Part shown: positions 9,406 through 53,423 of the stretch, piece after piece
Layout: every line of letters begins with the position of its first letter
How positions within the stretch are numbered: position 1 is the first letter of the stretch
From: an uncultured Dehalococcoidaceae bacterium
Lineage (GTDB): Bacteria; Chloroflexota; Dehalococcoidia; Dehalococcoidales; RBG-16-60-22
NCBI GenBank assembly: GCA_964503235.1
Contig: CAZCZJ010000003.1
Coordinates: forward strand, 1 to 61,368
Length of the DNA: 61,368 nucleotides
Direction: 5' to 3'
The notes under the pieces: model-generated
What the model saw: the letters and a program-made list of their open reading frames with translations, nothing else
Told to the model about the DNA's origin: nothing
Database searches by the model: none
Program-made: the position numbers and the translations under genes

Positions 9406-9443
9406 GTTAGATCTGGGTTTATCATTTGTAAGAATTTAGTAAT
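9406..9443 (-). promoter_or_regulatory. phased direct-repeat array; pentamers read CTAAC/TAAAC/CTTAC/ATTAC on the minus strand at exact 11-nt steps
   Basis: On the plus strand, GTTAG at 9406, GTTTA at 9417, GTAAG at 9428 and GTAAT at 9439. The array sits 85-120 nt upstream of the minus-strand dehydrogenase start (9321) and in its orientation. Confidence 0.45.
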
Positions 9444-9628
9444 AACTAAACAGGCACTTCCGCTATAATCTCCTGAGGTCGTATGTTAATAGTCGACACC
9501 AAACCTTCCATGCAGAATTCTTTTCATTATAACACTTCCATCTTTTTTTACCTGATTTCAATATTTTTTTACCCATACCACAGACCCCGAAAATAGACTG
9601 TTTAGGCTTCAGTTACAAGACGATTTAA

Positions 9629-9657
9629 TTCTAACCGAATCTTAACTTTAGCCTTAC
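9629..9657 (+). promoter_or_regulatory. phased direct-repeat array beginning with TTCTAACC
   Basis: TTCTAACC at 9629, with pentamers CTAAC 9631, TTAAC 9642 and CTTAC 9653 at 11-nt steps. It lies 140-170 nt upstream of the epimerase start. Confidence 0.45.
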
Positions 9658-9797
9658 TACAATCCAACCCCAAACAAGGGATAATATAAAGTCTTGAGTA
9701 TTTGGTATAATAAGTCATAACACTGGTAAAACAATGTCAAATAGGAGACTATGAACCTGAAAAGTCGTATCGCATCGTTAAAAAGGGCAATACAAGA

Positions 9798-10742
9798 ATG
9801 AATAAAGCAGTCGTTACCGGCGGCGCCGGATTCATAGGTTCACATATCGCGGAAGAACTGAGCAAACGCGGCTATCAGGTTACGATAATCGATAATCTGT
9901 CTACCGGCAATTTATCAAATATTGAATCGATTCTCCGTAGCAGAAATGCTGAGTTTGTTCAGGGTAGTATAGTTGATTTGCCGGTACTGCGTAAACTGTT
10001 CTCGGGTACAGACTATGTCTTCCATCAGGCGGCGATACCCAGCGTTCCGCGTAGTATTAAGAATCCGAAAGCGTCCCATAACATCAATGCTACCGGTACT
10101 CTGAACGTGCTACTAGCTGCCCGCGATAAGGATGTTAAAAAAGTGGTCTATGCTTCGTCTTCATCAGTTTACGGTGATACCCCAACTCTTCCCAAGGTTG
10201 AAGATATGACTCCAAATCCCCTATCGCCCTACGCTATATCCAAACTCACCGCGGAGTACTACTGCAGGGTATTTCACGAAATTTACGGACTGCAGACCGT
10301 TTCTTTGCGGTATTTCAACGTTTACGGTCCGAGACAGGATCCTGATTCTCCGTATGCCGCTGTTATTCCTTTATTCATAAATCTGGCACTAGCGGGAAAG
10401 TCACCGGTGATATTTGGCGATGGCAAGCAAAGCAGGGATTTCACCTTCGTAAAAGATGTAGCCGAAGCTAACATCCTGGCAGCCGAGAGTGAAGCTACTG
10501 GTATCTTCAACATCGGTAATTCTCAAAGAGTCACTATCAACCATTTAGTACGACTTATCATCAAGCTAGTAAGAAATAGATCCATAAAGCCAATATACAA
10601 GGATATGAGGGTTGGAGATATTCTACATAGTCTAGCCGATATCACCAAAGCCAAGGCTTTTGGTTATAATCCCAAATACAGCCTGGAAGAGGGCCTTAAG
10701 GAGACGATTAATTCGTTTCAGGAGATGCATGGGTTAAGCTAA
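9798..10742 (+). CDS. NAD-dependent nucleotide-sugar 4-epimerase (WbpP/TviC-like SDR)
   Basis: Contains GGAGFIGSH, YASSSSVYG and YAISK (the YxxxK motif). Confidence 0.85.
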   Translation: MNKAVVTGGAGFIGSHIAEELSKRGYQVTIIDNLSTGNLSNIESILRSRNAEFVQGSIVDLPVLRKLFSGTDYVFHQAAIPSVPRSIKNPKASHNINATGTLNVLLAARDKDVKKVVYASSSSVYGDTPTLPKVEDMTPNPLSPYAISKLTAEYYCRVFHEIYGLQTVSLRYFNVYGPRQDPDSPYAAVIPLFINLALAGKSPVIFGDGKQSRDFTFVKDVAEANILAAESEATGIFNIGNSQRVTINHLVRLIIKLVRNRSIKPIYKDMRVGDILHSLADITKAKAFGYNPKYSLEEGLKETINSFQEMHGLS

Positions 10743-10851
10743 TCCGCTATATAGTTAATTGGAATAATTCAGATTAATCAAATACTGCTACAAATCAGCA
10801 CAAAATAAAGGTGCACGAATTGCATGATTAACCCTTATTATCGAGGTTGGC

Positions 10852-11124
10852 ATGAGAATTCAACTTAAAGGTAGAGGTCACGTGCCAGCAATTGTTACCG
10901 GTAACGAATTTGGCATCAAAATCCTGCGAAACATGCAACAGGAAACCGATTTCGATGGTATTACCCTAGACGTCGCTCATGATATTTTCAGGGAGGCCGG
11001 GCTTGAGATTAGCCTGGATAAACCGGTTAATGTAACTAACGAAAGGCCGGTTTTAATAAACGTAAAAAGATACCTCGATGGCTCTAAAGCGCGTGAAAAA
11101 GGCTTTTACTGCCGTACACTGTAA
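10852..11124 (+). pseudogene. C-terminal fragment (~last 75 aa) of a nucleotide-sugar dehydrogenase paralog
   Basis: The fragment reads NEFGIKILRNMQQETDFDGITLDVAHDIFREAG..RPVLINVKRYLDGSKAREKGFYCRTL. This aligns with the C-terminus of 7957-9321 (EEFGIKMLKKLEDEGKFDGIILAVVHDIFKGNG..APVLVDIRRAFDGEEAIARGFYYRTL). No Rossmann or catalytic part precedes it. Confidence 0.6.
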
Positions 11125-11942
11125 TGAATAAACGGTTTACACTCAAACGTACCGCCCTGAGCCTGACTCTTACCCTTATTATCCTAGGTATTATCTTTAT
11201 CGGACTCGATATCCTTGATATCAACGAAGACTATAGACTGCATTGGCCAATAGCGGTCATCAATACCATATTCATAAGCGCAGTTGGCCTGTTGACGATA
11301 TATTCCGCTACGAAGAATTATCTTCACTCTGGTTCGCTAGAGATACTAGCCCTGGGCGGTGGCGTCCTGGCTCTGGTTTTCAGTATTACCCTTTACGGGT
11401 GGCTGACAAATACGGACCTTGATACACGTATTACCGCGTATGACAGCGGCGTATTATTAGCCTCGATTGTTTTTTTAGCAGGAGCGATCCTTGCTATAAA
11501 GATACAGGGCCCTTCCGGATGGAAGACCGGGTCTAATAAATTAAGTGTTACAATTATCTATGCCGCTGTATTTCTGCTTATTACGGTTATCACCTGGCTG
11601 GCATATCAGGACATTATTACGGTTTTTACACATGAATTTACCGAGCACTTTACCGCCAGAGACATCGTGCAGGGAATAGCCGCAATTTTCTATGTGAGCG
11701 CCGCACTGATTTATCTGAGGAAATACCGTGGTTCACAGGCTAATATCTACTTCTGGTATTCTCTGGGCTTGATACTCTTTGCCGCGGGGGTAATCTTCAT
11801 ATCACGAGGACCTCTGGAAGGCCGGATTGCCTGGCTGGGTAGAGCATCTCAGTACATTGCCAGTATCTATTTCCTCGCTGCCGCTCTAAGTGTTTACAAG
11901 CGGCCAGGCGCTAATGGAGTGGCGAGTAAAAGAGAATCATAA
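11124..11942 (+). CDS. polytopic membrane protein of unknown function (about 7 TM)
   Basis: 272-aa hydrophobic ORF. Its ATG overlaps the stop of the preceding fragment (TAATG). I recognised no catalytic motif. Confidence 0.55.
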   Translation: MNKRFTLKRTALSLTLTLIILGIIFIGLDILDINEDYRLHWPIAVINTIFISAVGLLTIYSATKNYLHSGSLEILALGGGVLALVFSITLYGWLTNTDLDTRITAYDSGVLLASIVFLAGAILAIKIQGPSGWKTGSNKLSVTIIYAAVFLLITVITWLAYQDIITVFTHEFTEHFTARDIVQGIAAIFYVSAALIYLRKYRGSQANIYFWYSLGLILFAAGVIFISRGPLEGRIAWLGRASQYIASIYFLAAALSVYKRPGANGVASKRES

Positions 11943-11962: not shown

Positions 11963-13201
11963 CTAATTCACCAGATCCGAAGCCAGATGCAGATAGTCCC
12001 TGAGCAGGCGGGGCATGAGGTATTTACTCCTCACCGATTCTTTTCCAGCTCGGCCTATTTGTCCGGCTAATACAGGATTCTTCAGTAGAGTGACAATCCG
12101 CTCGGCGCAGTCCGACGGGCTATAAACCAAAAAACCGGTTTCTCCGTCGCTAATTTGATGCCGGATACCCCCACAATTACCACCGATTACCGGCCTTTGC
12201 TTCCACATAGCCTCCGCAACCGTTAGTCCGAAGCCTTCACGAATGGACTTCTGCAGTACAACGTCTGAACCGGATTGAAAGGCGTTCACTTCTCTGTCAC
12301 CGATAAGCTGCGGAGCGGAAAAGATATGGATATCAGAATCGTTTCCGCAGTATTCCTGCAAATTTTCCAGAATTTCAAAAGCATCAAAATCGTCTATAGC
12401 CGTCATGGCGCCGACAAAGGCGAGTTGGAGTCCGGGTATCTCTTTTTTCGCCAGCCTGTAGGCGTCAGCCACGCCCCACGGGTCTTTCCACTTATCGAAG
12501 CGGGATACCTGCGAGATAATGGGCCGGTTTAAGTCTAGACCCAGCTCAGCCATTATCTGCCTTGCCCGTGAATATGTCATTTCCCGGTGCTTTGGCTGCA
12601 GGGGGTCAATAGCCGGTGGAATTACCACGACTTCAGTGGGATTATTGCCGTTAGGGAAATACTCGGGCATGCTGGCTATTATCCTTTGATATTTTGTCAT
12701 ATAAGGAAAAAGCATTTGGCGGGCTTCTTCGTTGGGTTGGGTAGTGTCAACGTGGCAAATCCATACACCGATATCGGAATTCATAAAGGACAGCATGGGT
12801 AAAACCTGAGCATCATGAATAAACCACAGGTCGGCGTTAACTCCCATTGATTTCAAAGATTTAACCGCTTTCTCATTTCGTGCCTGATAGCAATTAAAGT
12901 CGGCGGCACTGGGTATAACACTTCCTCCCTGGAGACAGTGATGTAAGGTCTTACTTACGCTAAAGAATGAGTCATCGGGTAGCAGGGCATACCATTCCGC
13001 CTGAACACCAACTCCCTGCATAAGCGGTACCAGCGACTTGAGTATTTCCGCTACTCCCCCACCCTGAGCGGTAGCATTAATATGTATTACACGCAATCCC
13101 CGCAGCTTCTCGGCAACTCTAGTTACATCTGATAGTAAACCTTCAGATACGATACCGTGATAACCATCGAGTTTGACTGCCTGGGTAGAGACTATCTGCA
13201 T
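11963..13201 (-). CDS. GT4 glycosyltransferase, TreT (trehalose glycosyltransferring synthase)-like
   Basis: N-terminal RVIHINATAQGGGVAEILKSLVPLMQGVGV resembles TreT-type enzymes. The E-x7-E region reads EGFGLTVAEAMW. AAGGAG lies before ATG 13201. Confidence 0.7.
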   Translation of the reverse strand: MQIVSTQAVKLDGYHGIVSEGLLSDVTRVAEKLRGLRVIHINATAQGGGVAEILKSLVPLMQGVGVQAEWYALLPDDSFFSVSKTLHHCLQGGSVIPSAADFNCYQARNEKAVKSLKSMGVNADLWFIHDAQVLPMLSFMNSDIGVWICHVDTTQPNEEARQMLFPYMTKYQRIIASMPEYFPNGNNPTEVVVIPPAIDPLQPKHREMTYSRARQIMAELGLDLNRPIISQVSRFDKWKDPWGVADAYRLAKKEIPGLQLAFVGAMTAIDDFDAFEILENLQEYCGNDSDIHIFSAPQLIGDREVNAFQSGSDVVLQKSIREGFGLTVAEAMWKQRPVIGGNCGGIRHQISDGETGFLVYSPSDCAERIVTLLKNPVLAGQIGRAGKESVRSKYLMPRLLRDYLHLASDLVN

Positions 13202-13322: not shown

Positions 13323-13478
13323 CAATCTAAACAATATGGATGTTGCTCAATTCTTTAGTCAGCAATTCTACCTTAATAACTACAGGTAAGAATACGGTAG
13401 GATAAAGGCAGAATTCGATTAGATATGAAGGTAAGCCATAGATACCGGACAGCTGACTGACAGGTTATTGGCGGTTCA

Positions 13479-14444
13479 TTAATGGTAGTCTTTATACCTT
13501 CTGGTTGCCCTCTGTTCCAGCGGCAAGGAGAAGCTAAAAATACTGCCTCCCTGGGACCTGTTGCCGGCCCATATACGGCCGCCGTGGCCCTCTACTATCA
13601 TTTGACTGATATACAGGCCAAGGCCAGCACCAGGGGTGCTTTTTATTATCTGGTTATCCACACGATAGAATCGTCGGAATATATTCTCCAGGTCTTCTTC
13701 AGGCACTCCCAGTCCATCATCCGCAACACTAACAACCAGGGAGGGAAAGCTTATCGCAGGAGCATCTCCAAAGATACTGCAAAGGTCCTGTTCATCGCGA
13801 ACCAGCCGAACATCAACCGTAATTTCACCACCCTGTGGTGAGTATTTAATAGCATTATTGATAAGATTAGTTAAAACCTGTTCTATCTTTTCCGGTTCGG
13901 CTTTTACGAGAGGCAAACGCTCTACAGGGGTGATTCGTATTACATGTTTGTTCGTCTGACTCTGCATCTCGGGTATTAATTGCTGGAGTAAATCATTTAG
14001 ATAAACGGAATGGGTTATCCATGTATCAGAGTTTTCAAGATGAGAAATGTCTCTCAGATTCTCCAGCAGGCGAAGCATCCTGTTACTGGCTGATTCTATA
14101 CCGCGGAGATATTGCTTCTTCTGCTCCTCCGTAATGGACTCGCTGAGTTCCAGTAAAGTCCCGGTATATCCCTTGATAACAGTAAGAGGTGAGAGTATCT
14201 CATGCCATAACACCGAAAGATCATCCGTAGTAGTATGCGTTTTCTTATCATGTGTAGCGGCATCATAGGTTACCGGTAGACCGTCTTTATCCTTATACAC
14301 CATCAATTCCGGTTCGCTTCTATTACCACCGTCACCAAACATATACCTTTTCCCGGTTCCTTCTTTCTCCGGCAAGTTACCATCATCGCTATAATGAGTG
14401 CGGAGTAGATTTTTCTTTTGCCTAGCCGAAAGATTATGCTTCAT
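13479..14444 (-). CDS. sensor histidine kinase, cytoplasmic (no TM segment)
   Basis: H box WHEILSPLTVIKGY, N box NLINNAIKYS, G1 DDGLGVP, G2 GAGLGLYIS. Confidence 0.85.
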   Translation of the reverse strand: MKHNLSARQKKNLLRTHYSDDGNLPEKEGTGKRYMFGDGGNRSEPELMVYKDKDGLPVTYDAATHDKKTHTTTDDLSVLWHEILSPLTVIKGYTGTLLELSESITEEQKKQYLRGIESASNRMLRLLENLRDISHLENSDTWITHSVYLNDLLQQLIPEMQSQTNKHVIRITPVERLPLVKAEPEKIEQVLTNLINNAIKYSPQGGEITVDVRLVRDEQDLCSIFGDAPAISFPSLVVSVADDGLGVPEEDLENIFRRFYRVDNQIIKSTPGAGLGLYISQMIVEGHGGRIWAGNRSQGGSIFSFSLPLEQRATRRYKDYH

Positions 14445-14453: not shown

Positions 14454-15170
14454 TTAAGACCCTAACGCCTCGACTTCTTCACTAGCCCGGGCAAAGTAAT
14501 AGCCAACCCCTCGTTCGGTTAATATTAACTTTGGCGTATGGGGATTCTCTTCTATCTTCTGACGCAGGTACCGGATATAAAGTTTGACGAAGGATTTATC
14601 GCCGATATAATTAGGGCCCCAGGCTTTTTCCAGCAGCTGCTCATGAGTTACTATCCAACCGCGGTTTTTAATCAGGCATGATAAGATCCTGAATTCCGTC
14701 GGCGATAGTTTCACCCGCTTTCCCCTAACATATACCTGACGGCTTCTCCATTCTATTTCAATCTCGCCATTATGGAAATTACTCGGTTCACTATCAATAT
14801 TAGCTGAGCCGGTCCTTCTCAGGACAGCCTGAACTCTGGCTATCAGTTCACGAAAATCAACAGGTTTGGTAAGATAATCATCGACACCGAGGTCAAACCC
14901 CCTTAGTTTATCGGCTTTCTTACCATTTACCGTTACCATCATTACGGGAATATCACTCATATCCCGGATCCTGCGGCAGACTTCCCAGCCATCCATCTTG
15001 GGAATATTAGCATCCAGAAGCACCAGGTTGGGTCGGTTGCTATAGACATGGCGCATACCTTCGGCGCCATCCTGAGCGGTGAATACATCATACCCGGCAT
15101 TCTTGAGCCACATGCGGGTCAGGTTAGAGAATTCAATATCATCTTCAATTAGTAATATTTTGCCTCTCAT
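14454..15170 (-). CDS. OmpR/PhoB-family response regulator
   Basis: Receiver domain (KILLIEDD, LVLLDANIPKMDG) plus a winged-helix output domain (LSPTEFRILSCL..ILTERGVGYYF). Confidence 0.9.
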   Translation of the reverse strand: MRGKILLIEDDIEFSNLTRMWLKNAGYDVFTAQDGAEGMRHVYSNRPNLVLLDANIPKMDGWEVCRRIRDMSDIPVMMVTVNGKKADKLRGFDLGVDDYLTKPVDFRELIARVQAVLRRTGSANIDSEPSNFHNGEIEIEWRSRQVYVRGKRVKLSPTEFRILSCLIKNRGWIVTHEQLLEKAWGPNYIGDKSFVKLYIRYLRQKIEENPHTPKLILTERGVGYYFARASEEVEALGS

Positions 15171-15280: not shown

Positions 15281-15479
15281 AGGGTACAATTAGCTTAAGG
15301 TTAAAGTTTCTGAGGAAGCTAATATAAGGATAATATGGAAGTGGCCAGATGTCAACATCACTTTTTATACCTTTTCCCACCAATTTCCAACTTTAGTCAT
15401 GATACTTAAGTACTAAACCGAACAAACATCATAATTGTAAACATTTTTATTCCGATAGTCAACTAAAAATGTCTGTTTG

Positions 15480-15521
15480 TTAACCTAATTTTTACCAATA
15501 TCTTACATGTTTCTAACTTAC
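15480..15521 (+). promoter_or_regulatory. phased direct-repeat array
   Basis: TTAAC 15480, TTTAC 15491, CTTAC 15502 and CTAAC 15513 at exact 11-nt steps, plus CTTAC at 15517. Confidence 0.45.
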
Positions 15522-15647: not shown

Positions 15648-15687
15648 TTCTAACCATTTTCTTACTACCCTCTGACATCAATCTAAC
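15648..15687 (+). promoter_or_regulatory. phased direct-repeat array beginning with TTCTAACC
   Basis: TTCTAACC at 15648, with CTAAC 15650, CTTAC 15661, CTGAC 15672 and CTAAC 15683 at 11-nt steps. It lies 60-100 nt upstream of ATG 15748. Confidence 0.45.
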
Positions 15688-15747
15688 GCCTCCTTAATAT
15701 CATTATTTTGTCAGCATTTATTACCTATTGGATTACTGAGAAACACC

Positions 15748-18258: not shown

Positions 18259-18309
18259 AAATAAATCCTATCGAGAATATACCCCGATTACGAAAGGGAT
18301 ACATGGTTT

Positions 18310-18347
18310 CTAACCTAATCCTAACGTTATCTTACTTTTAATTTAAC
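18310..18347 (+). promoter_or_regulatory. phased direct-repeat array preceded by TTCTAACC (18308)
   Basis: CTAAC 18310, CTAAC 18321, CTTAC 18331 and TTAAC 18343, with steps of 11, 10 and 12 nt. It lies 50-90 nt upstream of the ugd start. Confidence 0.45.
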
Positions 18348-18394
18348 TTGATTTAGTGAAAATAGAAATAATAAACACGGGAGTAGTTATTCAC

Positions 18395-19735
18395 ATGAGC
18401 AATATCAGTGTTATCGGAGCTGGATACGTCGGTCTATCAATAGCCGCCTGTTTTGCAGAACTGGGACACAAGATTACTCTATTAGAAATTAACTCCGATA
18501 AATTATCTGCTTTAAAAAACGGGATAATGCCCATCAGCGAACCGGGCTTAACCGAGATGTGGCAACGCAACAGGAAAGAAGGCAGGATTAACATTACCGG
18601 TCATTATGAAGATGGTTTATTGGATGCTGAATTTGCTTTCATCGCTGTTGGTACACCCGCCGCCAGTAATGGGAAAGCCGATTTGAAATGGGTAAGGCTG
18701 GCAGCAAAGAATATTGCCGAAGCAGCGAGTGGACCAATGGTTGTGGTGATTAAAAGCACCGTACCAATAGGCACAGCCGAAATCGTCGATAGAATTATCA
18801 CCTATAACGGCAGCAACGGTCATAGTCTTCCGGTAGTGTCTAATCCGGAATTTCTGAGGGAAGGTGCCGCGGTTTATGATTTCATGCACCCCACCCGGGT
18901 TGTTATCGGCTCGTCAAGCCCAGAGTCCATTGAAGCTGTAGCCAAGCTATATAAACCGCTTGATTCACCACTGGTTACCTGCGACAACAGGACAGCCGAA
19001 ATGTCAAAGTATGCCTGCAACGCGTTCCTCGCCACCAGGATTAGTTTTATGAACGAAATCGCTCTTCTCTGTGATGAGTACAGCGTCGATGTCGTCAAGG
19101 TGGCAAAAGTAATGGGATTAGACCCGCGTTTTGGCAGCGGGTATTTAAATGCCGGGCTGGGATGGGGAGGCAGCTGTCTACCCAAGGACCTTAAAGGGCT
19201 TATCCACATGGCAAAAAGCCGCGGATTCCCGGCACGTTTGCTTCGCGCCGTCCAGCAGATAAATCAACAGCAGGTTTATATAGTAATGAGGAAGCTTGAC
19301 CGGCTTTTGGGTTCTCTGGAAGGTAAAACCATTGGCATTCTGGGACTCTCTTTTAAACCGAACTCAGACGATATAAGGGATGCACGCTCACTAATGGTTA
19401 TTTCGCTGCTAGAAAACCAGGGGTGTCGCGTTAAAGCCTATGACCCGGACCCGGTAGCCATGCGGAATGCAGCTAAACTCAAGCTTGACGTTATCTATTG
19501 TGCCGACGCTTATGATGTCGCCAAAGACAGTGACGCATTAGTACTCGTTACCGAGTGGGACGAATTCAAAGAGCTGGATATGCCCGCAATGGCTACGATG
19601 ATGAATCAGCCTATTATTATAGATGGTCGTAATCTTTATGACCCCGATGAAATGATTCAAGCTGGATTTCTCTATGAAGGAATCGGCCGTTGCAGCCAGT
19701 GTATGCAAGAAACCAGAATTGGCATCGTTCAATAA
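18395..19735 (+). CDS. ugd: UDP-glucose 6-dehydrogenase
   Basis: ISVIGAGYVGLS Rossmann motif and catalytic GGSCLPKD. I prefer ATG 18395 (GGGAG about 11 nt upstream) over the GTG at 18356 given in the track. Confidence 0.85.
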   Translation: MSNISVIGAGYVGLSIAACFAELGHKITLLEINSDKLSALKNGIMPISEPGLTEMWQRNRKEGRINITGHYEDGLLDAEFAFIAVGTPAASNGKADLKWVRLAAKNIAEAASGPMVVVIKSTVPIGTAEIVDRIITYNGSNGHSLPVVSNPEFLREGAAVYDFMHPTRVVIGSSSPESIEAVAKLYKPLDSPLVTCDNRTAEMSKYACNAFLATRISFMNEIALLCDEYSVDVVKVAKVMGLDPRFGSGYLNAGLGWGGSCLPKDLKGLIHMAKSRGFPARLLRAVQQINQQQVYIVMRKLDRLLGSLEGKTIGILGLSFKPNSDDIRDARSLMVISLLENQGCRVKAYDPDPVAMRNAAKLKLDVIYCADAYDVAKDSDALVLVTEWDEFKELDMPAMATMMNQPIIIDGRNLYDPDEMIQAGFLYEGIGRCSQCMQETRIGIVQ

Positions 19736-19764
19736 ATGAAGTAGATAAAAATAAACGGATAAAG

Positions 19765-20526: not shown

Positions 20527-20549
20527 TTGACAAATAAAGGGGGTAGTAA

Positions 20550-45223: not shown

Positions 45224-45226
45224 GTA

Positions 45227-47176
45227 TCAACTTCCCTTAGATGATAGCCTCTGGCGTGAAAAGGATTTTCTTCTTCGTTGCGCCCGCTCCTGGATATTAT
45301 GAAAAGACGGCTGGCTGCCCCGGTTCTGACTCAGGTATTTCGCCATTGCCCTGATATTGGGATATTGAAATAGCTTGACGACGGGCATCTCGATTTGGAA
45401 TGTCTCCCGCACCAAGGTGATTAATTTTACGGCTAAAATAGAAGTACCACCCAGGTCAAAAAAGTTGTCCTCGATGCCGATCTCTTCAAGACCTAATACG
45501 CGGCACCACAAATCGTTCAGGACTTTCTCCTGGTTCGTGGAAGGACTAATATAGGTCTGCTCCATTTCGGGTCGTGCCCGGTCAGGTTCGGGAAGTGCCC
45601 CCCTATCTATTTTACCATTATGTGTTAAAGGTAACTCGTTTAGCGTTACAAATACGGCCGGCAACATATAATCGGGCAGTCTACCCGCCAGGAATCGGCG
45701 TAGTGACTCCACCGTGGGTTTTTGACCCGCTGGTGGCACGATATATCCGCCAAGACGCATATTCCCGAAACCATCTTGTTTAACGGTAACCGCGGCGTCC
45801 CGTACCTGCGGGTGTTGCCTGAGAACAACTTCGATTTCACCGATTTCAACCCGGTTCCCGTAGAGTTTGATCTGTCCATCGAGTCTGCCTTCAAACCGGT
45901 AGTTGCCATCGGGCATCAAGTTACCCTGGTCGCCCGTTTTGTAGATTATTTCCTGTCGGTCTATCACCAGGGGATTCTGAACAAAGGAAACTTCATTTAA
46001 TGCCGGCGCATCATAGTAGCCCTTTGTCATAAAAGGTGTCTTGATATAAATCTCTCCGGTTTCACCAACCGGGCTGAGCTTACCGTTATTGATAACCAGC
46101 GCCTCCGTATCCGGTATCGGTTTGCCAATCGGTACTATCTCGCCAGGTGCAAAATTATTATCGCTGATACGATAGAACAACTTGGCGAGAGTTGTCTCGG
46201 AAGGCCCGTAAAGATTAACAAGCTCGACACGGTTCCCGCAGACCTGCCTCCAGCAAACAACATCATTTCCGTACAATGCCTCACCGGCTATCAGAGCATA
46301 TTTCAGATCCGGCAGTGCGTCACTATCGCTGTTTGTTTCCTTAATCTCTCTTGTCAGCAGGCGAAAAACGGTCGGGACGATGTGCGTTAGTGTTATGCGG
46401 TTATCCCGCATCCAGTAAAGCAGCTTCCTTGGATTATGTCTGGTTTCTTCATCCGGGATGCACAGAGTGCCGCCGGCGAACAATGGCACGAAGATATCCC
46501 TCAGGCTCACATCGAAGGTCACCGCGGAAAGCAGACTTATCCGCACGTCCTGATTTAAATTGAATTCACCAATCTCCCAGTGGATAAAGTGGCTCAGCCC
46601 CTTCTGGGAGCCGAGAATAACTTTTGGTTCTCCGGTGGAGCCGGAAGTGGTAACAAGGTAGCAACCGTCATCCGGCCGGGAAGCGATGGGTGGATTGTCA
46701 TCCGGAAAGCTGGCATTATTTGTTATGGCGTTGCCGCCGGGTAGGTTTTTCAGATTCAGGTTGCCAGCCTCGTCAATAACCAGTAGATAACTCGGATTGA
46801 TAGGTGGTTTAAATCTCTGTAGCTTTGCCAGGATTTCATTCTCAAGAACCGTGCTGGTGATGAAGATATTCGGCTTTGTCTTACTCAGGATATTACCCAG
46901 GCGTGCATCCGGGAACTCCCTGTTCAGCGGCATGAATACGGCGCCGGCCTTGAGTGCGCCCAGTACGGCCATCACATACTCAATCGACGCATTAAAATAA
47001 AGCCCGATAATTTCCTGAGCACCTACACCATTCTTGATTAGAGCATGCGCAATCCGGTTAGCATTGGCGTTTAGCTCGCTATAAGTGACGCCGCGCGAAC
47101 CATCATCAATGGCCGTATTCGCCGGAAATCTCCCGGCGGCTCTTTCAAATAAACTGTGTATTATCCTGTTATCCAT
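45227..47176 (-). CDS. stand-alone NRPS adenylation-thiolation (A-T) didomain
   Basis: A3 LVTTSGSTGEPKV, A4 FDVSL, A5 NLYGPSETT, A7 YKTGDQG, A8 GRLDGQIKLYGNRVEIGEIE, A10 NGKIDR. T domain FFDLGGTSILAVKL. There is no C, E or TE domain. The stop lies 3 nt before the PKS start. Confidence 0.9.
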   Translation of the reverse strand: MDNRIIHSLFERAAGRFPANTAIDDGSRGVTYSELNANANRIAHALIKNGVGAQEIIGLYFNASIEYVMAVLGALKAGAVFMPLNREFPDARLGNILSKTKPNIFITSTVLENEILAKLQRFKPPINPSYLLVIDEAGNLNLKNLPGGNAITNNASFPDDNPPIASRPDDGCYLVTTSGSTGEPKVILGSQKGLSHFIHWEIGEFNLNQDVRISLLSAVTFDVSLRDIFVPLFAGGTLCIPDEETRHNPRKLLYWMRDNRITLTHIVPTVFRLLTREIKETNSDSDALPDLKYALIAGEALYGNDVVCWRQVCGNRVELVNLYGPSETTLAKLFYRISDNNFAPGEIVPIGKPIPDTEALVINNGKLSPVGETGEIYIKTPFMTKGYYDAPALNEVSFVQNPLVIDRQEIIYKTGDQGNLMPDGNYRFEGRLDGQIKLYGNRVEIGEIEVVLRQHPQVRDAAVTVKQDGFGNMRLGGYIVPPAGQKPTVESLRRFLAGRLPDYMLPAVFVTLNELPLTHNGKIDRGALPEPDRARPEMEQTYISPSTNQEKVLNDLWCRVLGLEEIGIEDNFFDLGGTSILAVKLITLVRETFQIEMPVVKLFQYPNIRAMAKYLSQNRGSQPSFHNIQERAQRRRKSFSRQRLSSKGS

Positions 47177-47189
47177 TTTTATCCTGAAA

Positions 47190-48533
47190 TCACATAAAAT
47201 CCGTTTTTACTTTCGAGATTACATAGTGCCGCTTACCCGCCTCGGTGGGTTCGATATTATCTACCTGTATTACGGATATGTTCATCATACCGCCGAAAGA
47301 TGGCTGCAATTCATTACGGATATCTTCTAACAGAGCCGGAGCAACTCTTTGCCGACATAATAGACGTACCTCTAAATGTTCTCTATCTGGTTGATAAATC
47401 TGGAATTGCTGTACCCCATATTGATATTTGGATATAATTATATCATCGACGATTACTGAGTGAACAATCTGGCCGTCAGGTCTTACAAGAAGATCATTAT
47501 TCCGTCCGACTATCTCTTGGAGGACAGGCATACCCCGCCCGCAGGAACAGCCCCCGGTTTCATAAATCCCCACGTCGCCGTTTTTATATCTGATAAATGG
47601 CATGGCGTACTGGTTCAAGGCCGTGACGACCACCTCTCCCATCTTTCCATCATCGACGACCTGCCCACTTTCTACCAGTTCAAGGTAGCGCTCTTCGTTC
47701 ACGTGGAGACCTCCTTGGGGACACTGGTAAGCATAACTGAATATCTCCAGGGAGCTGTAATGGTCGGCCACCGGTGCGTGAAAAATCTCCTCGAAAAGAC
47801 CCCGCATTGAAGGCGTTATTTTCTCAGCCGTGGTTTCTATGAGCCTGGGTTTAATAGACGTGATATGGCGCTCTTTAAGATAATGAGCGAATACGGATAG
47901 TGCCTGCGGATAGACTCTGATTATTTCTGGTTGCCACCTGATAAGCATTTCGGTAAACGCTTGCATTTTGTTTTCGGTCATCGTCCGGGCATTCAAGTAC
48001 CGGTATCGCTTGATTTTGGCAGCCAGGCGGTCTTTCCATTTCCACTCCGGATAATCCTGTAAGGAGCCTGTAATCCAGGCCATCTTATTTCCCCGTCTTA
48101 CCCCGTACCAGCCGCGGCACCGGGCTTCAACGGCATAGCTCCAGTACGCCGCGGAGCTATCCATGATGAACCGCATCGGTTCTCCGGTAGAACCGGATGT
48201 TTTCCCCTCGAAGACACCTCCTCGATAAACGGTTGAAACGAGGTCTCCACGATGGTTTTTCACATCAGTCCTGGTTAGGAAGGGGAGAGCCTGAAAGTCT
48301 TTCAAGCTTTTAATGTCCTGCGGGTGAATACCTTCACGCTGGTAGCGCTGACGGTAAAACGGCACGTATTCATAGGCGTAGCTCACCAGCCGCTGGATTT
48401 TCTTTAATTGTACCTCTTCCAACTCGCCCCTTGTAAGCCATTGGGAACTTTCCAGCTCCTTCAGACAACGCCGGATTTCCTGGTGCCCCGGTAACAGGTA
48501 CTTCCTTAAAAACTGGTAAACACTCGAATACAT
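47190..48533 (-). CDS. CapK/PaaK-like adenylate-forming ligase (phenylacetate-CoA ligase family), copy 1
   Basis: 447 aa. Canonical AMP motif GKTSGSTGEPMRF, plus the family features YRQRYQREGIHP..LPFLTR and C-x-CGRG. Confidence 0.8.
   Translation of the reverse strand: MYSSVYQFLRKYLLPGHQEIRRCLKELESSQWLTRGELEEVQLKKIQRLVSYAYEYVPFYRQRYQREGIHPQDIKSLKDFQALPFLTRTDVKNHRGDLVSTVYRGGVFEGKTSGSTGEPMRFIMDSSAAYWSYAVEARCRGWYGVRRGNKMAWITGSLQDYPEWKWKDRLAAKIKRYRYLNARTMTENKMQAFTEMLIRWQPEIIRVYPQALSVFAHYLKERHITSIKPRLIETTAEKITPSMRGLFEEIFHAPVADHYSSLEIFSYAYQCPQGGLHVNEERYLELVESGQVVDDGKMGEVVVTALNQYAMPFIRYKNGDVGIYETGGCSCGRGMPVLQEIVGRNNDLLVRPDGQIVHSVIVDDIIISKYQYGVQQFQIYQPDREHLEVRLLCRQRVAPALLEDIRNELQPSFGGMMNISVIQVDNIEPTEAGKRHYVISKVKTDFM
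48273..48403. repeat. 131-nt patch ~95% identical to 49690-49820, inside paralog 1
   Basis: Hand alignment shows 7 mismatches in 131 nt, including a 48-nt perfect run (CTGAAAGTCTTTCAAGCTTTTAATGTCCTGCGGGTGAATACCTTCACG). Confidence 0.85.
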
Positions 48534-48609
48534 AATCCCTATTTACGTGTCGTCTATTTCACGTGCCTTATTCTCTTTGCCTGATATTCTATAGGTACAG
48601 CAAGTGTAA

Positions 48610-49950
48610 CTAATAGCCATCCGGCTTAACTTCCGAAATAATGAATCGATGCTTGCCCGCTGCTGTCAATTCAATGTGGTCTACCATCTTTACAGATATT
48701 TGCATTTTCTTACCGAAATATGGCTGTAATTCATTCCTGATATTTGTTTCCAGCTTGATTGCATTTGGTTTCTGCTTGCATAACAATCGAACCTCGAGGT
48801 GTTGCTGATCTGGTTGATAAATCTGGTATCGGTATACTTCCGGTATTTTCTCTACGACGTCATCAACACTGGTCCAATGAATAACCTTTCCATCAGGGTT
48901 CACAAGTAAATCGCAGTCTCGTCCTACCACCTCACGGAGAACCGGCATACCCCGACCGCACCTACAGTCCGTGGGATCGATAATCCCCACATCATTGTTC
49001 TTATACCTGATAAAGGGCATAGCATACTGGTTTAATGGTGTGACAACAATATCTCCCATCTGGCCGGGAGGGACAACTTGGCCGCCGGATACCAGTTCGA
49101 GATAGCGGTTTTCTATTACATGTAGGCTCCCCTCAGGACACTGATAAGCAATAATGCCTGATTCCCAAGAACCATAACCGTCGGCTATCGTTGCTTGAAA
49201 AACGTGCTCGAATAACTGCCGTTGGTGATGTGTCATTTTCTCAGCACAGACCTCGATTAGCTTAGGTCTGATAGACGGCAATTTATGTTCCTTAAGATAT
49301 CTGGCGAAAATGTAGAGAGCTGTCGGATATGCCCTAAACATATCCGGCTTCCATCTTGATAACATCTCGGCGAAGTCCCGCATTTTCAAATCGTCCATTG
49401 TACGGCTGTTTAAATACCGTCGTCGACGTATTTGAGCACGGAGACGTGAACGCCAGTTCCAGCTCGGAAAATCTTTTTGATTGCCCCAGACCCAAGCTAT
49501 CTTGTCCCCCGGTGTGATCCCATACCAGCCGCGGCACCGGGTTTCAACCGCAGAGCATTCCATTAATGAAGACTTGTCCATTATAAAACGCATCGGATGC
49601 CCGATGGAACCACCAGTAGTATACTCGTAAGTACTGCCTTGATATACCGAAGATACAAGTAATTTCAGGTTATTATTCACATCATCCCGGGTTAGGAAGG
49701 GGAGAGACTGAAAGTCTTTCAAGCTTTTAATGTCCTGCGGGTGAATACCTTCACGTTGATAGCGCTGCCGGTAAAACGGCACGTTTTCATAAGCATAGCT
49801 CACCAGCCGCTGGATTTTCTCGAGCTGTATTTCTTCCAATTCGTATCTTGTCAGCCACTCTGTTTTTTCCAACTCCTCCATGCAGCGCCGGATTTCCTTA
49901 TGCCCCGGTAGCAGGTACTTCTTTGATAACTCGTAAAGATAGGAATACAT
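48610..49950 (-). CDS. CapK/PaaK-like adenylate-forming ligase, copy 2 (divergent AMP motif)
   Basis: 446 aa, collinear with copy 1. The N-terminal ~95 aa are nearly identical. The AMP/P-loop motif reads TTGGSIGHPMRF rather than TSGSTGEPMRF. Confidence 0.8.
   Translation of the reverse strand: MYSYLYELSKKYLLPGHKEIRRCMEELEKTEWLTRYELEEIQLEKIQRLVSYAYENVPFYRQRYQREGIHPQDIKSLKDFQSLPFLTRDDVNNNLKLLVSSVYQGSTYEYTTGGSIGHPMRFIMDKSSLMECSAVETRCRGWYGITPGDKIAWVWGNQKDFPSWNWRSRLRAQIRRRRYLNSRTMDDLKMRDFAEMLSRWKPDMFRAYPTALYIFARYLKEHKLPSIRPKLIEVCAEKMTHHQRQLFEHVFQATIADGYGSWESGIIAYQCPEGSLHVIENRYLELVSGGQVVPPGQMGDIVVTPLNQYAMPFIRYKNNDVGIIDPTDCRCGRGMPVLREVVGRDCDLLVNPDGKVIHWTSVDDVVEKIPEVYRYQIYQPDQQHLEVRLLCKQKPNAIKLETNIRNELQPYFGKKMQISVKMVDHIELTAAGKHRFIISEVKPDGY
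49690..49820. repeat. 131-nt patch ~95% identical to 48273-48403, inside paralog 2
   Basis: See 48273-48403. Confidence 0.85.
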
Positions 49951-49993
49951 ATTACCTTCTCTCCTGGCTATAGTATTTAACGATTAAGTTTAA

Positions 49994-50809
49994 TTATTGA
50001 AGAAAATAGTACCGGTTATAATACCCCGCTCTCCGCCACGGGTCAATAAATAATCTAATAAACCATCTCTGCCTTAGCAATATGAAATTCATTTTCGCTA
50101 ATATGGATAGACTGAGGGAAAGAAGGCCCCTTGAGAGGCTGTTCTTTTGTAACAAGGATGGAAGTTTATCGTACAGGTTATAAAGTAAGGAGGGAAACAT
50201 ACTATAGTTATTATAAATCAGCTTAAATCCGCTGGTCTGTAGTAATTTGCTATATTCATCGTCGGTACGGAAAACGCACGGATTGCTACTATCTCCATAC
50301 CTTCGCTGCTTCAATGCGACTGAATCTCTCGTTATCAATAACCCATCTTTGTTTAAATGATGCCTTAATTGTTTTAGCAGATCTGAAACCGAATCATCAT
50401 CCATATACATCAGGCAACCACCGATATGGATTATATCAAAGTTTCGATTTTCTAAATAAGAATAGTCGGTTATATCTTGACACAAGAACGTTACGTTGCT
50501 AATCCCTTTATCACTGGCAAACTTATTTGCATACTTTATGAATGTCGGCGAAAAATCAATAGCGACAACGCTTTTACATTTTTTCGCGAAATCTATTGCA
50601 TAACTTCCGATATTGCACCCCAGGTCCAGAACAGACATAGATTGATCAAACTTTACCAGACGGAATAAGTGTGCTATCTGCATCTTGTAACGGTAGTTTA
50701 AGCGTACTTGGTCGTCGGACATGGTAGTGCCTATTGCATAATAATTGGAATGGATGTTCTTTGCCTTCTTTTCCCAGAATTGCTGCATATCATTACAACT
50801 AGGTTCCAA
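49994..50809 (-). CDS. class I SAM-dependent methyltransferase
   Basis: Motif I VLDLGCNIGSY, and post-I VVAIDFS. Confidence 0.8.
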   Translation of the reverse strand: MEPSCNDMQQFWEKKAKNIHSNYYAIGTTMSDDQVRLNYRYKMQIAHLFRLVKFDQSMSVLDLGCNIGSYAIDFAKKCKSVVAIDFSPTFIKYANKFASDKGISNVTFLCQDITDYSYLENRNFDIIHIGGCLMYMDDDSVSDLLKQLRHHLNKDGLLITRDSVALKQRRYGDSSNPCVFRTDDEYSKLLQTSGFKLIYNNYSMFPSLLYNLYDKLPSLLQKNSLSRGLLSLSLSILAKMNFILLRQRWFIRLFIDPWRRAGYYNRYYFLQ

Positions 50810-50877
50810 TTTAGCCTCTCCAACAACATCTGCTACAACGTAATTAAAAAAGAATCTGATATTTTATATATTTTGAA

Positions 50878-51624
50878 TTAAGGTTCCCATTCGAAATATA
50901 CGGGTTCAAAATATTGTCCTTCTTTAACAAACGCAGCTTGGTATCCCTCATTGACGTTCAAATCGCAAATTGACCACCGGGCGGCAGCTTCTGAATCTCC
51001 TTCAATACTTACCAATCTAGCCGGCTCATCCCGCGCCAGCGATACATCGAATTTATCCAGCGGGTAAGACAGGCCGTCTCCGGTAGCTTTAATAAAGGCC
51101 TCCTTGCGCGTCCAGCAGTTGAAAAACGCCTGCCTCTTCCCACTCTCAGGCAGTATGCGGAAAACCTCGTTCTCTCCCGGAGAGAAGAAACTCATAGCGA
51201 TTTGATCCATCTCAGGCATGTCTCGTATCCGCTCGATGTCAATACCTATTTCACGGTTCCTGATAAAAGCGTATATTGCCAGCCCCTCCGAGTGGGATAA
51301 ATTAAAATGAATCTTTTTCCGGTTAAAATCATCGGCGAGTGCCGGCTTGTCATTCTTCCCATAAGAAAATAGCACTCTTTCTGGTTCAACCCCAAGATAA
51401 CAACCCAGTAGTATTCTCAATATCCCCCGTCGTACGATAAACCGGTTTCTCTCCTTTTCAAAATGAAATCGCCCGGCCCTTTTTCTCTCACCGGCAACCA
51501 GCAGACTGTGATACGGCGATATCGTTCTATCCAGAAAAGCACTCCAGATATGGACTTCGTCTCTGGCTAATTCAAGGTCTGTCGATTTGACTATATTTAA
51601 TTGACGGTTCATCTTTATATCCAC
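50878..51624 (-). CDS. Sfp-type 4'-phosphopantetheinyl transferase
   Basis: FNLSHSEGLAIYAF, IGIDIERI, WTRKEAFIKATG. Confidence 0.85.
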   Translation of the reverse strand: MDIKMNRQLNIVKSTDLELARDEVHIWSAFLDRTISPYHSLLVAGERKRAGRFHFEKERNRFIVRRGILRILLGCYLGVEPERVLFSYGKNDKPALADDFNRKKIHFNLSHSEGLAIYAFIRNREIGIDIERIRDMPEMDQIAMSFFSPGENEVFRILPESGKRQAFFNCWTRKEAFIKATGDGLSYPLDKFDVSLARDEPARLVSIEGDSEAAARWSICDLNVNEGYQAAFVKEGQYFEPVYFEWEP

Positions 51625-51795
51625 TGAAGGGGAAATCCCAACACCTTTAGCATAAAATCATAAGGTTAGAAAAAAGTTAGGTTTGGGTTATAAGACGGAT
51701 AAAATGTAGATGAAGTGAGCCATGGGGCTTGAATCCATTCTCGCCATTCAAATACAAATTCATAGAAATATTCTTGTTAAAATGATTTATGTCAA

Positions 51796-52818
51796 TCATA
51801 CATCTAAAATAACCTTTATTCTTCGAAGAAGGTGATAACTCCCTGAGACGCTGGCCTTAAAGAACAAAATATTCTCACCTACTGCTATCCGCTTAAGTTT
51901 ATATAGAAATGAATTTTCATCGTTGAAGCCCTTTTCAACCGTAACCGCCGATTCGTAACCATAGCTCTTCACCTTAGAAATTACCCTGTCATTGTACGAA
52001 CCAGCCGGGTAGCAAAAATGATCTACCTTACGTCCAATGTTTCTCTCGATATCAAGTTTCGAGTTATATACTTCATCTTCCAGTTCCTTATCTGTGACAA
52101 GATTAGTACAGTTAGGATGCCTTCTGGTATGGCTGCCAATTTCAAGAATGTTGGGATCTAATCCCTTGATTTGCTCCCAATCGGCCATAATAAATTCTTT
52201 GGGAATATTAATTAAATTGTAATTGCCGAATTGCTTAAGATGTTCCAGCCTTTCTTTATCCGGGAGTGTACGCAGTTTCGCTTTAATGTCCTTCATTGCA
52301 TGCCCAATTGATATCCTATCACCCAGTATGTAATTGATTACTTCTCCTTTGAAGATAAACTTAAAATCCTTAGTGTTTTGATTTCTAATCACCGTTTCTA
52401 CAAAATCCGTCCACAATAGCTCATTTGTCCCGACTAAATCAGATACCAGATAGATACAGCCCTTGGCACCATAATCTTTCATTATTGGATAGGCATTTTC
52501 TACAACATTTCTAAACCCGTCATCGAAAGTGAGAACCACAAATTTATCCAGTCTGTTTTTATTTTTTATGGCATCTAATAAGTCTGTCATACTCACGAAG
52601 ATATATCCCTGGTTCTTGAGATACTCTAAATGTTTTCTGAAAAGCGACTTAGGAATGTGTCTCTCGTCGAAACCTCTCAGTAGGTCAAAGGTATCGTCAC
52701 ATATGCCGTGATACAAGAGAATAATCACCTTGTGTCGGTTTAATGTCCGGCATAGGGCATTTATCCCCAAGATGTCCAACGCCAATAGTAGCAATATACG
52801 CAAATACAGCCTAATCAT
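51796..52818 (-). CDS. polysaccharide deacetylase (NodB/CE4)
   Basis: N-terminal TM, VVLTFDDGFRNV, GCIYLV, HTRRHPN. Confidence 0.85.
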   Translation of the reverse strand: MIRLYLRILLLLALDILGINALCRTLNRHKVIILLYHGICDDTFDLLRGFDERHIPKSLFRKHLEYLKNQGYIFVSMTDLLDAIKNKNRLDKFVVLTFDDGFRNVVENAYPIMKDYGAKGCIYLVSDLVGTNELLWTDFVETVIRNQNTKDFKFIFKGEVINYILGDRISIGHAMKDIKAKLRTLPDKERLEHLKQFGNYNLINIPKEFIMADWEQIKGLDPNILEIGSHTRRHPNCTNLVTDKELEDEVYNSKLDIERNIGRKVDHFCYPAGSYNDRVISKVKSYGYESAVTVEKGFNDENSFLYKLKRIAVGENILFFKASVSGSYHLLRRIKVILDV

Positions 52819-52912
52819 CCCTATTTATATCTCGATCATGCTTATATATATGACCCTACCCCATTTTTTTTGATCCTCACCCAAAAACTGTAGCGGCATT
52901 GGTGAGAGAATT

Positions 52913-53101
52913 TCAGTTTTCTTGACTCTGCCCAGCATATTGCTTGGGCATCAGATTGTCAAGCAAGCCATGCGGTCTCTACTCATTGTAGTCACACCAC
53001 CAAGATTCGAATTTCTCCCTGGCATCCTCCATGCACAAAAACCAGTTTGCGTTCAAATACTCGTTCCGGAAGCTACCATCAAACGATTCGATCTCTATTC
53101 C
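52913..53101 (-). mobile_element. remnant of an IS3-family transposase (C-terminal end of OrfB/rve), disrupted
   Basis: Hand translation of the minus strand gives GIEIESFDGSFRNEYLNANWFLCMEDAREKFESWWCDYNE*RPHGLLDNLMPKQYAGQSQEN*. This is the classic IESFNG..R.E.LN...F.....A....E.W..DYN..RPH..L pattern with an in-frame TAG, and the frame is closed upstream. Confidence 0.7.
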
Positions 53102-53383
53102 CGTGCTCCCGGAGCGGACTCAGGCTCGAAACATCTTGATGATTGGGGCCATAGTAGGGGGAGTTGTTACCTTGGCATTATTGAACTAAAGATGGCTCAT
53201 AAGGGCAGTTATTTCAGCTAACCCTAATGAAGGTGAAAATAACAAGCCTGAAGATTGATAATTATAATTTGCATCTCATTTTGTATCAAGTTAGGATAGT
53301 ACTGGTCGATGCTCTATTTTGAAAGAGAAATAAGTTGGAATCAGCATCCAGCAAGATTTGAAGGTCCATTGAAAGCGAATGAT

Positions 53384-53423
53384 TTCTAACCTGATTCTTA
53401 CTTTTATCTTACTGGGTAATAAC
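53384..53423 (+). promoter_or_regulatory. phased direct-repeat array beginning with TTCTAACC
   Basis: TTCTAACC at 53384, with CTAAC 53386, CTTAC 53397, CTTAC 53408 and ATAAC 53419 at exact 11-nt steps. It lies upstream of the plus-strand GT/Wzy/Wzx block. Confidence 0.45.

Follow-up and report, generated by a model that had tools for sequence, protein, structure and literature searches.

Why should the operons of one bacterial gene cluster start behind the same short, evenly spaced repeats? The question is raised by a stretch of DNA from an uncultured Dehalococcoidaceae bacterium (GenBank assembly GCA_964503235.1, contig CAZCZJ010000003.1, positions 1 to 61,368), the whole of which, 61,368 nucleotides (nt) long, is called the window here. 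It carries a predicted surface-glycan locus, and an initial annotation had noticed arrays of CTTAC and CTAAC pentamers, phased at 11 nt, in many of its intergenic regions. That annotation proposed the arrays as candidate operators of an OmpR/PhoB-type response regulator, probably the one encoded at 14454-15170, and offered phased bent DNA or a transcribed antitermination leader as alternatives. The phased CTAAC/CTTAC repeats are confirmed as real sites of four 11-base pair (bp) direct-repeat units, and they stand at about ten promoters of the glycan locus.

Four-unit arrays and the promoters that carry them

The simplest evidence is the spacing itself. Pairs of the pentamer [CT]T[TA]AC on the same strand of the window are separated by 11, 22 and 33 nt in 13, 10 and 6 cases, compared with 0-2 cases at the control spacings of 9, 10 and 13 nt and 6 at 12 nt. 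Non-coding DNA, which amounts to 8.8 kb, contains 11 of the 13 pairs at 11 nt, and chains of at least three pentamers at exact 11-nt steps begin at 9631, 15480 and 53386. The 8-mer TTCTAACC, which the initial annotation had used as its landmark, is found on the plus strand at the four positions given there (9629, 15648, 18308 and 53384) and also on the minus strand at 15236-15243 and 51664-51671. This makes six copies in the window against 2.35 in shuffled sequences, 2 of 100 shuffles reaching six. Taken alone the count is weak evidence, and it was therefore replaced by statistics of spacing and of a position weight matrix (PWM).

The PWM is an 11-mer built from 17 units of the window and was applied as a scan for three consecutive units. 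At thresholds of 14, 18 and 22 it finds 9, 6 and 6 arrays in the non-coding DNA, compared with 0.065, 0.02 and 0 in first-order Markov simulations of that same non-coding DNA and with 1, 0 and 0 in the 52.6 kb of coding DNA. Arrays that had played no part in training were recovered at 51693 (-), 29065 (-) and 34796 (+). A scan for four units gives nine clear arrays, A1 to A9 in the table below, to which a weak tenth, A10, can be added. Together they span 9402-53427, and all are intergenic, each being directed at a downstream gene. The consensus unit in the window is TTCTAACC followed by an A/T-rich 3-nt linker, with four 11-nt units in each array.

Much of the initial annotation survives this treatment. 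Its distances of 87-270 nt from the 8-mers to the gene starts are correct if the uridine diphosphate (UDP)-sugar dehydrogenase gene is read from the ATG at 18395. The phasing at 'exactly 11 nt' is borne out by the peaks at 11, 22 and 33 nt and breaks down in the array at 18308, which has steps of 11, 10 and 12 nt. Several of the listed pentamers depart from the pattern C/T-T-T/A-A-C (15672 is CTGAC and 53419 is ATAAC), and in the minus-strand array at 9445 only two of the four units conform. Two copies had been described as weaker: that at 34796 (+) is array A7, picked up by the PWM without training, and that at 34398-34425 (-) has no PWM support. The list of arrays was also incomplete, lacking the strong array at 51661-51704 (-), the weak one at 13383-13427 (-) and both minus-strand copies of TTCTAACC.

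The anatomy of the unit becomes clearer when the window is pooled with 16 related loci that carry an ortholog of the regulator (L001-L016), which gives 62 four-unit arrays, 61 of them unique. The consensus of units 1-4 is TTcTAACCnaa, TtCTaACntnn, nTcTnACntnn and TTCTAACnnnn, and their mean scores of 9.5, 7.8, 3.4 and 8.3 bits form a strong-strong-weak-strong series. The core of the unit is TTCTAAC(C), followed by the A/T-rich 3-bp linker; the A/T content of the linkers after units 1 and 2 is 82% and 75%, compared with 62% in the flanking sequence. Not one of the 62 arrays falls within a long open reading frame (ORF), and 60 of them are followed by a co-oriented ORF of at least 120 amino acids (aa) that starts no more than 450 nt downstream.

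The arrays are also placed precisely with respect to a -10 hexamer. The motif TANNNT starts exactly 6 nt past unit 4 in 35 of the 61 unique arrays and 7 nt past it in a further five, every other offset accounting for 0-8 of the 61; this offset played no part in the selection of the arrays. No position outside the repeats and the -10 hexamer carries information content across the 61 arrays, and no recognisable -35 hexamer is present at the array-bearing promoters. In most arrays the core of unit 4 thus stops 9 bp short of the -10, and the repeats extend over the -35 region. This geometry supports the view that the arrays are promoter-embedded sites of the PHO-box type, situated in the -35 region.

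PHO boxes are 11-nt direct-repeat units that are bound head to tail (PMC4415409). PhoB recognises 8-bp repeats that are separated by an A/T-rich 3-bp linker and placed 10 bp ahead of the -10, and SphR recognises three or more such repeats with the consensus CTTAACCT (PMC1906773). The arrays resemble these sites in having an 8-bp core with an A/T-rich 3-bp linker, repeated head to tail every 11 bp in two to four or more units, and in replacing the -35 element and ending about 10 bp upstream of the -10. An even number of units, as expected if one dimer takes up two of them, is found in the four-unit arrays of the window and of the 16 related loci.

The regulator and its relatives

In the 42 ORFs of the window, annotation with Pfam and NCBIfam finds a single winged-helix protein and no other DNA-binding protein. 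It is the response regulator that the initial annotation had named. Its scores and cutoffs are 202 and 340 bits for YycF, 198 and 330 bits for RpaB and 175.6 and 296.2 bits for PhoB (TIGR02154), and MtrA also outscores PhoB; judged by these scores, it is an equivalog of no named family. The nearest solved structures, RegX3, KdpE, PhoP, RpaA and MtrA, have near-equal scores. Its partner is a soluble histidine kinase of 321 aa (287 aa as called in public assemblies), with a hydrophilic N-terminus and with neither a transmembrane segment nor a recognisable sensor domain. The best NCBIfam matches of this kinase include PnpS and PhoR.

Orthologs of the regulator, 70-95% identical, occur only in metagenome-assembled genomes of Dehalococcoidia (L001-L016), and the same protein is present in JGI and SRA assemblies. 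Arrays were found at a threshold of 18 in all 16 of these loci and at orthologous genes. No array was found in 64 loci around other OmpR-type regulators, 983 kb in all and including other Dehalococcoidales and Chloroflexota. In the synteny determined with tblastn, the regulator and kinase genes invariably diverge from an operon for a dehydrogenase, transferase, oxidoreductase, acetyltransferase and aminotransferase, and a gene for an 836-aa receiver-GGDEF-HD protein usually precedes this operon. The orthologs preceded by arrays are the genes for the receiver-GGDEF-HD protein, the dehydrogenase, the sugar transferase, the epimerase, a GT1 glycosyltransferase and a phosphopantetheinyl transferase (PPTase), together with the signal-peptidase/ABC operon and the deacetylase operon. 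The intergenic sequence around the conserved arrays has diverged between genomes.

The recognition helix of the regulator, DKSFVKLYIRYLR, and the helix region, DKSFVKLYIRYLRQKIE, are invariant or near-invariant in the array-linked orthologs, which are 63-100% identical. More than 60 OmpR-type regulators without arrays have other helices, typically RTxDVHI(K/R)RLR. A further approach to the same association came from metagenome contigs scanned with a DNA pattern only, TTCTAACCN3TN4ACN9ACN6CTAAC. The scan returned 119 stretches, about 45 of them of Dehalococcoidia type, and the genes downstream of the latter belong once more to the glycan locus: those for the receiver-GGDEF-HD protein (at least 25 cases), the dehydrogenase, the sugar transferase, the aminotransferase, a sugar nucleotidyltransferase and a GT2 glycosyltransferase. 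Of the roughly 18 contigs with enough flanking sequence, 12 have a divergent regulator ortholog, 54-89% identical, next to the array. The scan also uncovered a second clade (L084 1253-1292, L130 3555-3594, L112 4563 and L185 5339), in which a four-unit TTCTAAC array precedes the gene for an OmpR-type regulator that shares only 46-47% identity with that of the window, the neighbouring genes being GAF-PAS kinases and further regulators. The helix is HYVKLYIRYLR in the L130 regulator (region HYVKLYIRYLRQKIE) and HYVKIYISYLR in the L084 regulator (region HYVKIYISYLRQKIE). Because the helix is shared also by this clade, which was found from DNA alone, recognition helix and motif go together. The proposal that the arrays are candidate operators of an OmpR/PhoB-type regulator, probably that of the window, thus gains support from unit architecture, synteny, co-occurrence and the recognition helix.

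Some contigs depart from the common arrangement. L100, L102 and L172 form one sub-lineage in which the array promoter is kept and the adjacent OmpR-type regulator is missing, and the kinase of L172 (4069-5640) is longer, at 523 aa, with an extra N-terminal domain. Many other matches to the pattern were non-specific and were set aside, being either pure 11-nt satellites or an unrelated conserved 44-nt element. The latter (TTCTAACCAAGTTTAAACGTTATTCTAACGTTATTCTAACGTTA, then tttctacgtcgcttagtcc) occurs in twelve low-GC contigs unrelated to the Dehalococcoidia loci (L107, L113, L118, L137, L141, L164, L167, L179, L181, L188, L190 and L198). The tandem satellites begin with TTCTAACC (e.g. TTCTAACCGCG, TTCTAACCCCA and TTCTAACCAGG) and are found in higher-GC contigs (L082, L087, L094, L116, L119, L122, L140, L147, L151, L169 and others).

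Activation, repression or DNA structure

It is likely, in our judgement, that the local regulator, when phosphorylated, binds each array and activates about ten promoters without a -35 element, making the locus a single glycan regulon. Two tandem dimers of the phosphorylated regulator would occupy each 44-bp array. Most arrays would cover roughly -19 to -62, standing in for the -35 element, and the bound regulator would recruit RNA polymerase by class II activation, as at PhoB and PhoP promoters. The promoters, spread over 9.4-53.4 kb, would in this way be tied into one regulon for a surface glycan or glycoconjugate, which would comprise UDP-sugar dehydrogenases, a WbpA/B/D/E-like diacetamido-uronic-acid pathway, the initiating transferase, glycosyltransferases, Wzy/Wzx, the ABC exporter and the polyketide synthase (PKS)/acyl-modification operon. 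Physical binding, the sign of the regulation and the signal behind it are all inferred.

Control of the regulator itself is a separate matter. Its promoter is of the canonical sigma-70 type, with a -35 (15462-15457) and a -10 (15439-15434), and begins at a distance of 15 nt from the edge of array A3. This 'distal' array has no -10 of its own and abuts the divergent promoter, probably for autoregulation. Of 17 loci, 12 have an element TTGACT-17/18-TAnAAT next to the distal array; the element begins 13-16 nt away from the upstream edge of the array and is directed at the regulator operon. In L016 the match is weaker, at 8 of 12 positions. A3 is therefore likely to be an autoregulatory site for the regulator/kinase operon, upstream of it and inverted. 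A generic sigma-70 promoter scan of the window gave 25 matches against 20.9 in shuffles, which is no enrichment, and served only for the regulator's own promoter.

Several observations weigh against activation by the local regulator. All of the organisms are uncultured and represented by metagenome-assembled genomes, and phylogeny confounds the association of the regulator with the arrays. Because five arrays of the window served to train the PWM, their window scores are circular; independent evidence comes from the histogram of spacings, from arrays not used in training and from the other loci. A1, A2, A5 and A9 have only a -10 of the xAAAAT type or at a shifted offset, and no co-oriented array precedes the regulator gene. 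Furthermore, six of the roughly 18 contigs (L100, L102, L126, L148, L168 and L172) have arrays but no adjacent regulator, and consequently the regulator need not be local; one with the same type of helix could be encoded elsewhere in the genome. Finally, the core of the unit, TCTAACCT, matches the Synechocystis Pho box CTTAACCT at six of eight positions, the geometry matches that of PhoB promoters, and a four-unit TTCTAAC/GTCAC array (TTCTAACCGGC TTCTAACGGAA GCGTCACGTTT GTCTAACGCGA) is present in the unrelated contig L105 (1378-1421, 59% GC), between a porin-like gene and pstS-pstC and directly upstream of the latter. The L105 array has the appearance of a genuine Pho box whose core is similar, and together with the cyanobacterial resemblance it makes a Pho-type regulator a live alternative.

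According to this alternative the arrays would be PHO boxes of a global phosphate regulator, either one of PhoB, RegX3 or SphR type encoded elsewhere or the local pair acting as a Pho system, and the glycan locus would be turned on under phosphate limitation. We regard it as unlikely, although the closest solved structure of the regulator is the phosphate regulator RegX3 and the kinase has PnpS and PhoR among its best matches. RegX3 is barely ahead of KdpE, PhoP, RpaA and MtrA, the regulator remains far below the PhoB equivalog cutoff and resembles YycF, RpaB or MtrA at least as much as PhoB, and the kinase is without the transmembrane and PAS parts of PhoR. The recognition helix of the regulator, moreover, is unlike the canonical RTxDVHI type at most base-contacting positions. 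The two UDP-sugar dehydrogenases and weak TuaB/TuaC-like matches in the locus do suggest a phosphate-free uronic-acid polymer, and the Pho regulon of Bacillus subtilis activates teichuronic-acid genes (PMC4415409). However, no pst, phoU or phosphatase gene is present in the window or in the 16 related loci (about 400 kb), and no phosphate gene lies downstream of any Dehalococcoidia-type array in the metagenome sample. The targets are glycan genes rather than those of phosphate uptake, and the host, an uncultured Dehalococcoidia bacterium, is also unlike those of PhoB and SphR. A cyanobacterial origin of the DNA, with SphR Pho boxes and a DIF-type TCCGGA at 53425, was dropped, the regulator orthologs being all in Dehalococcoidia, and the likeness to Pho boxes serves for comparison only.

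The same regulator might instead bind the arrays and mainly repress, by occluding the promoters, in which case the locus would come on only once the regulator is dephosphorylated or removed. With the arrays overlying the -35 region, a bound protein could block RNA polymerase as readily as recruit it, and some promoters are repressed by OmpR-family proteins such as PhoP and ArcA (PMC11825685; PMC4173790). Against this, the absence of a -35 hexamer at the array promoters is the signature of activator-dependent promoters, and the only full TTGACT -35 of the region belongs to the regulator's own promoter, which lies beside an array and not under it. Repression as the main role is consequently improbable. 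We give hardly any credence to an architecture independent of a binding protein, such as phased bent DNA or sequence resembling an UP element, or to a transcribed leader of the ops/JUMPStart antitermination type. The A/T-rich linkers do recur with an 11-nt period, and antitermination is often used by long polysaccharide operons. But conservation falls on particular C and A bases (TTCTAAC) rather than on A-tracts or on a mere phasing of A/T, and arrays are lacking around other regulators, Chloroflexota genomes included. A leader is largely refuted by the -10 hexamer at a fixed 6 nt downstream, which places the arrays outside the transcript; nor is there a NusG/RfaH paralog among the 42 ORFs, or any match in an Rfam scan of the window.

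Activation by the local regulator also has counterparts among known systems. At the tua operon of B. subtilis, PhoP is likewise an OmpR-family regulator that acts at repeats of 11-bp period on an operon for a uronic-acid surface polymer (PMC4415409). B. subtilis PhoP is a global regulator with tua as one target, whereas the pair described here sits inside the glycan locus, as does every array seen. The repeat recognised by that PhoP is TT(A/T/C)ACA. The transcription activation complexes of Mycobacterium tuberculosis PhoP are a further counterpart, the four-unit arrays fitting two tandem dimers; this PhoP matches the regulator with 152.7 bits in a search of the PDB, but motif and regulon differ, and the system described here is known from its sequence alone. 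The SARP-type activators of Streptomyces, which use heptamer repeats at 11-nt spacing next to the -10, share the DNA geometry, the winged-helix fold class and the control of one pathway-specific cluster. A SARP-controlled promoter was nevertheless rejected: the only winged-helix protein of the window is a response regulator with a receiver domain, and no ORF contains a BTAD or SARP domain.

The locus and what its control may mean

The arrays of the window, with the proteins and the promoter associated with them, are collected below.

Table 1. Arrays and associated features of the window, in order of position; targets are predictions
Feature	Position	Strand	Repeat units or domains	Spacing and promoter elements	Predicted target or role
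A1	9402..9445	-	TTATTACTAAA TTCTTACAAAT GATAAACCCAG ATCTAACATAT	CAAAAT after 6 nt; four-unit PWM score 22.5	UDP-sugar dehydrogenase gene 9321..7957
A2	9629..9672	+	TTCTAACCGAA TCTTAACTTTA GCCTTACTACA ATCCAACCCCA	GATAAT 7 nt downstream	Epimerase gene 9798..10742, hypothetical gene 11124..11942
A10 (weak)	13383..13427	-		One 10-nt step; TAAGGT after 6 nt; three-unit score 16.4	GT1/TreT-like glycosyltransferase gene 13201..11963
Histidine kinase	13479..14444	-	HisKA and HATPase_c only		Partner of the regulator
Response regulator	14454..15170	-	OmpR/PhoB family; receiver and winged-helix Trans_reg_C		Proposed binder of the arrays
Sigma-70-type promoter	15434..15462	-		TTGACT, 17 nt, TACAAT	Toward the regulator operon
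A3 ('distal')	15478..15521	+	TGTTAACCTAA TTTTTACCAAT ATCTTACATGT TTCTAACTTAC	No -10 at the standard offset	
A4	15648..15703	+	TTCTAACCATT TTCTTACTACC CTCTGACATCA ATCTAACGCCT	-10 TATCAT at 15698-15703	Predicted promoter of the degenerate receiver-GGDEF-HD gene 15748..18258 (+)
Signalling protein	15748..18258	+	836 aa; degenerate receiver, GGDEF, HisKA-like, HD-GYP-like		
A5	18308..18363	+		Steps of 11, 10 and 12 nt; GAAAAT at 18358-18363	Predicted promoter of operon 18395..25239 (+)
A6	29022..29065	-	TTTTTACCAAA TTCTTACACAA TTGTGACTTGC ATCTTACATAA	TAGTAT after 6 nt	Predicted promoter of operon 29041..25400 (signal-peptidase-like gene, ABC transporter, nucleotidyltransferase)
A7	34796..34839	+	TTATAACCTAA TTCTTACAATT AACAAACCAAA ATCTAATGTTT	TAAGAT after 6 nt	Acetyltransferase-like gene 34871..36112
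A8	51661..51704	-	TTTTATCCGTC TTATAACCCAA ACCTAACTTTT TTCTAACCTTA	TATGCT after 6 nt	Heads long minus-strand operon 51624..36125
A9	53384..53427	+	TTCTAACCTGA TTCTTACTTTT ATCTTACTGGG TAATAACCTCC		Operon 53653..60575 (glycosyltransferases, Wzy-like polymerase, flippase)

Annotation of the same kind as that used for the regulator shows the locus to be a predicted surface-glycan gene cluster. It has two UDP-sugar dehydrogenases and one epimerase, and an initiating sugar transferase followed by an oxidoreductase, an acetyltransferase and an aminotransferase that make up a WbpA/B/D/E-like set. Further genes encode GT4 glycosyltransferases, a Wzy-like protein, a flippase, an ABC-2 exporter, an undecaprenyl-diphosphatase and a large cadherin/Ig-like surface protein. 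Operon 18395..25239, behind A5, contains one of the UDP-sugar dehydrogenases, the initiating transferase, the oxidoreductase, the acetyltransferase, the aminotransferase and a hypothetical gene. The long operon behind A8 contains genes for a PPTase, a methyltransferase, adenylating enzymes, a PKS of KS-AT-ACP-TE organisation, deacetylases and ATP-grasp/FemAB-like enzymes.

Many of the arrays can be followed individually into other genomes. An A2-type array also precedes the epimerase ortholog in L010, and arrays orthologous to A10 precede the GT1 gene in L007 (15550+) and L014 (20493+). The class to which A4 belongs recurs, with an equally placed TATGAT, in at least ten other loci and in many metagenome contigs, and its consensus is TTCTAACCgTT TTCtGACTtgt CTCcGACAttg TTCTAACTnnn, then 6-7 nt, then TATGAT. 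Orthologs of A5, with TAAAAT or TACAAT after a 6-nt gap, are found in L001-L003, L006 and L007, those of A6 in L001, L008 and L009, and that of A8 before the PPTase ortholog in L005.

Individual parts of the locus have further features of their own. Behind A2, a 16-codon ORF at 9752-9802 has a good ribosome-binding site (MNLKSRIASLKRAIQE) and shares an ATGA overlap with the start codon of the epimerase gene; it may encode a leader peptide or serve translational coupling. In the 836-aa protein encoded behind A4 the receiver is without its phospho-acceptor Asp (LLGPPLPDIG), the GGDEF motif reads NGNKF and the HD of HD-GYP reads ND; nonetheless, among first targets of the arrays in genomes and metagenomes this degenerate protein is the best conserved. 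Near A9, the C-terminal remnant of an IS3-type transposase, with a stop codon inside, lies at about 52900-53100 (-), between the deacetylase gene and the array, and a truncated N-terminal epimerase fragment is present at 53653-53790 (+) on the same edge of the locus. Remnant and fragment suggest a past rearrangement there.

The initial annotation had also seen the 11-nt phasing inside repeated modules. The repetition is real, an 86-nt module being duplicated at 7662-7747 and 13234-13319 with 77% identity, but the modules are not arrays: their PWM scores are low, their pentamers lie opposite the gene strand and they are conserved only in the closest relative, L001 (11851-11971). Each directly precedes a ribosome-binding site on the minus strand, in one case that of a small helix-turn-helix ORF starting at about 7641 and in the other that of the GT1/TreT-like gene starting at 13201, and has no match in Rfam. 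The module could be a shared leader or promoter module.

To our knowledge, almost nothing is known of how uncultured Dehalococcoidia control transcription. For this group, motif, regulator subfamily and regulon all appear to be undescribed, a search of full-text literature having returned nothing relevant. The class II activator mechanism of the PHO-box type is itself textbook material, and the value of the present analysis is descriptive and not conceptual. What it provides is a concrete regulon that can be tested: the 44-bp operator is defined, the geometry of the promoters is predicted, a regulator is proposed together with its recognition helix, and about ten target operons mark out a surface-glycan and acyl-modification locus of roughly 45 kb. 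In related metagenome-assembled genomes the motif can help to annotate promoters, to place operon boundaries and to define the glycan regulon.

The Dehalococcoidia have unusual envelopes that are often wall-less. A more far-reaching idea, which we regard as doubtful, is that the sensor-less kinase, the regulator with its unusual helix (SFVKLYIRY) and the degenerate receiver-GGDEF-HisKA-HD-GYP scaffold form a new feedback module that switches the cell to a uronic-acid-rich, acyl-modified glycan. If this were true, the switch could be phosphate-sparing, analogous to the change from teichoic to teichuronic acid in Bacillus.

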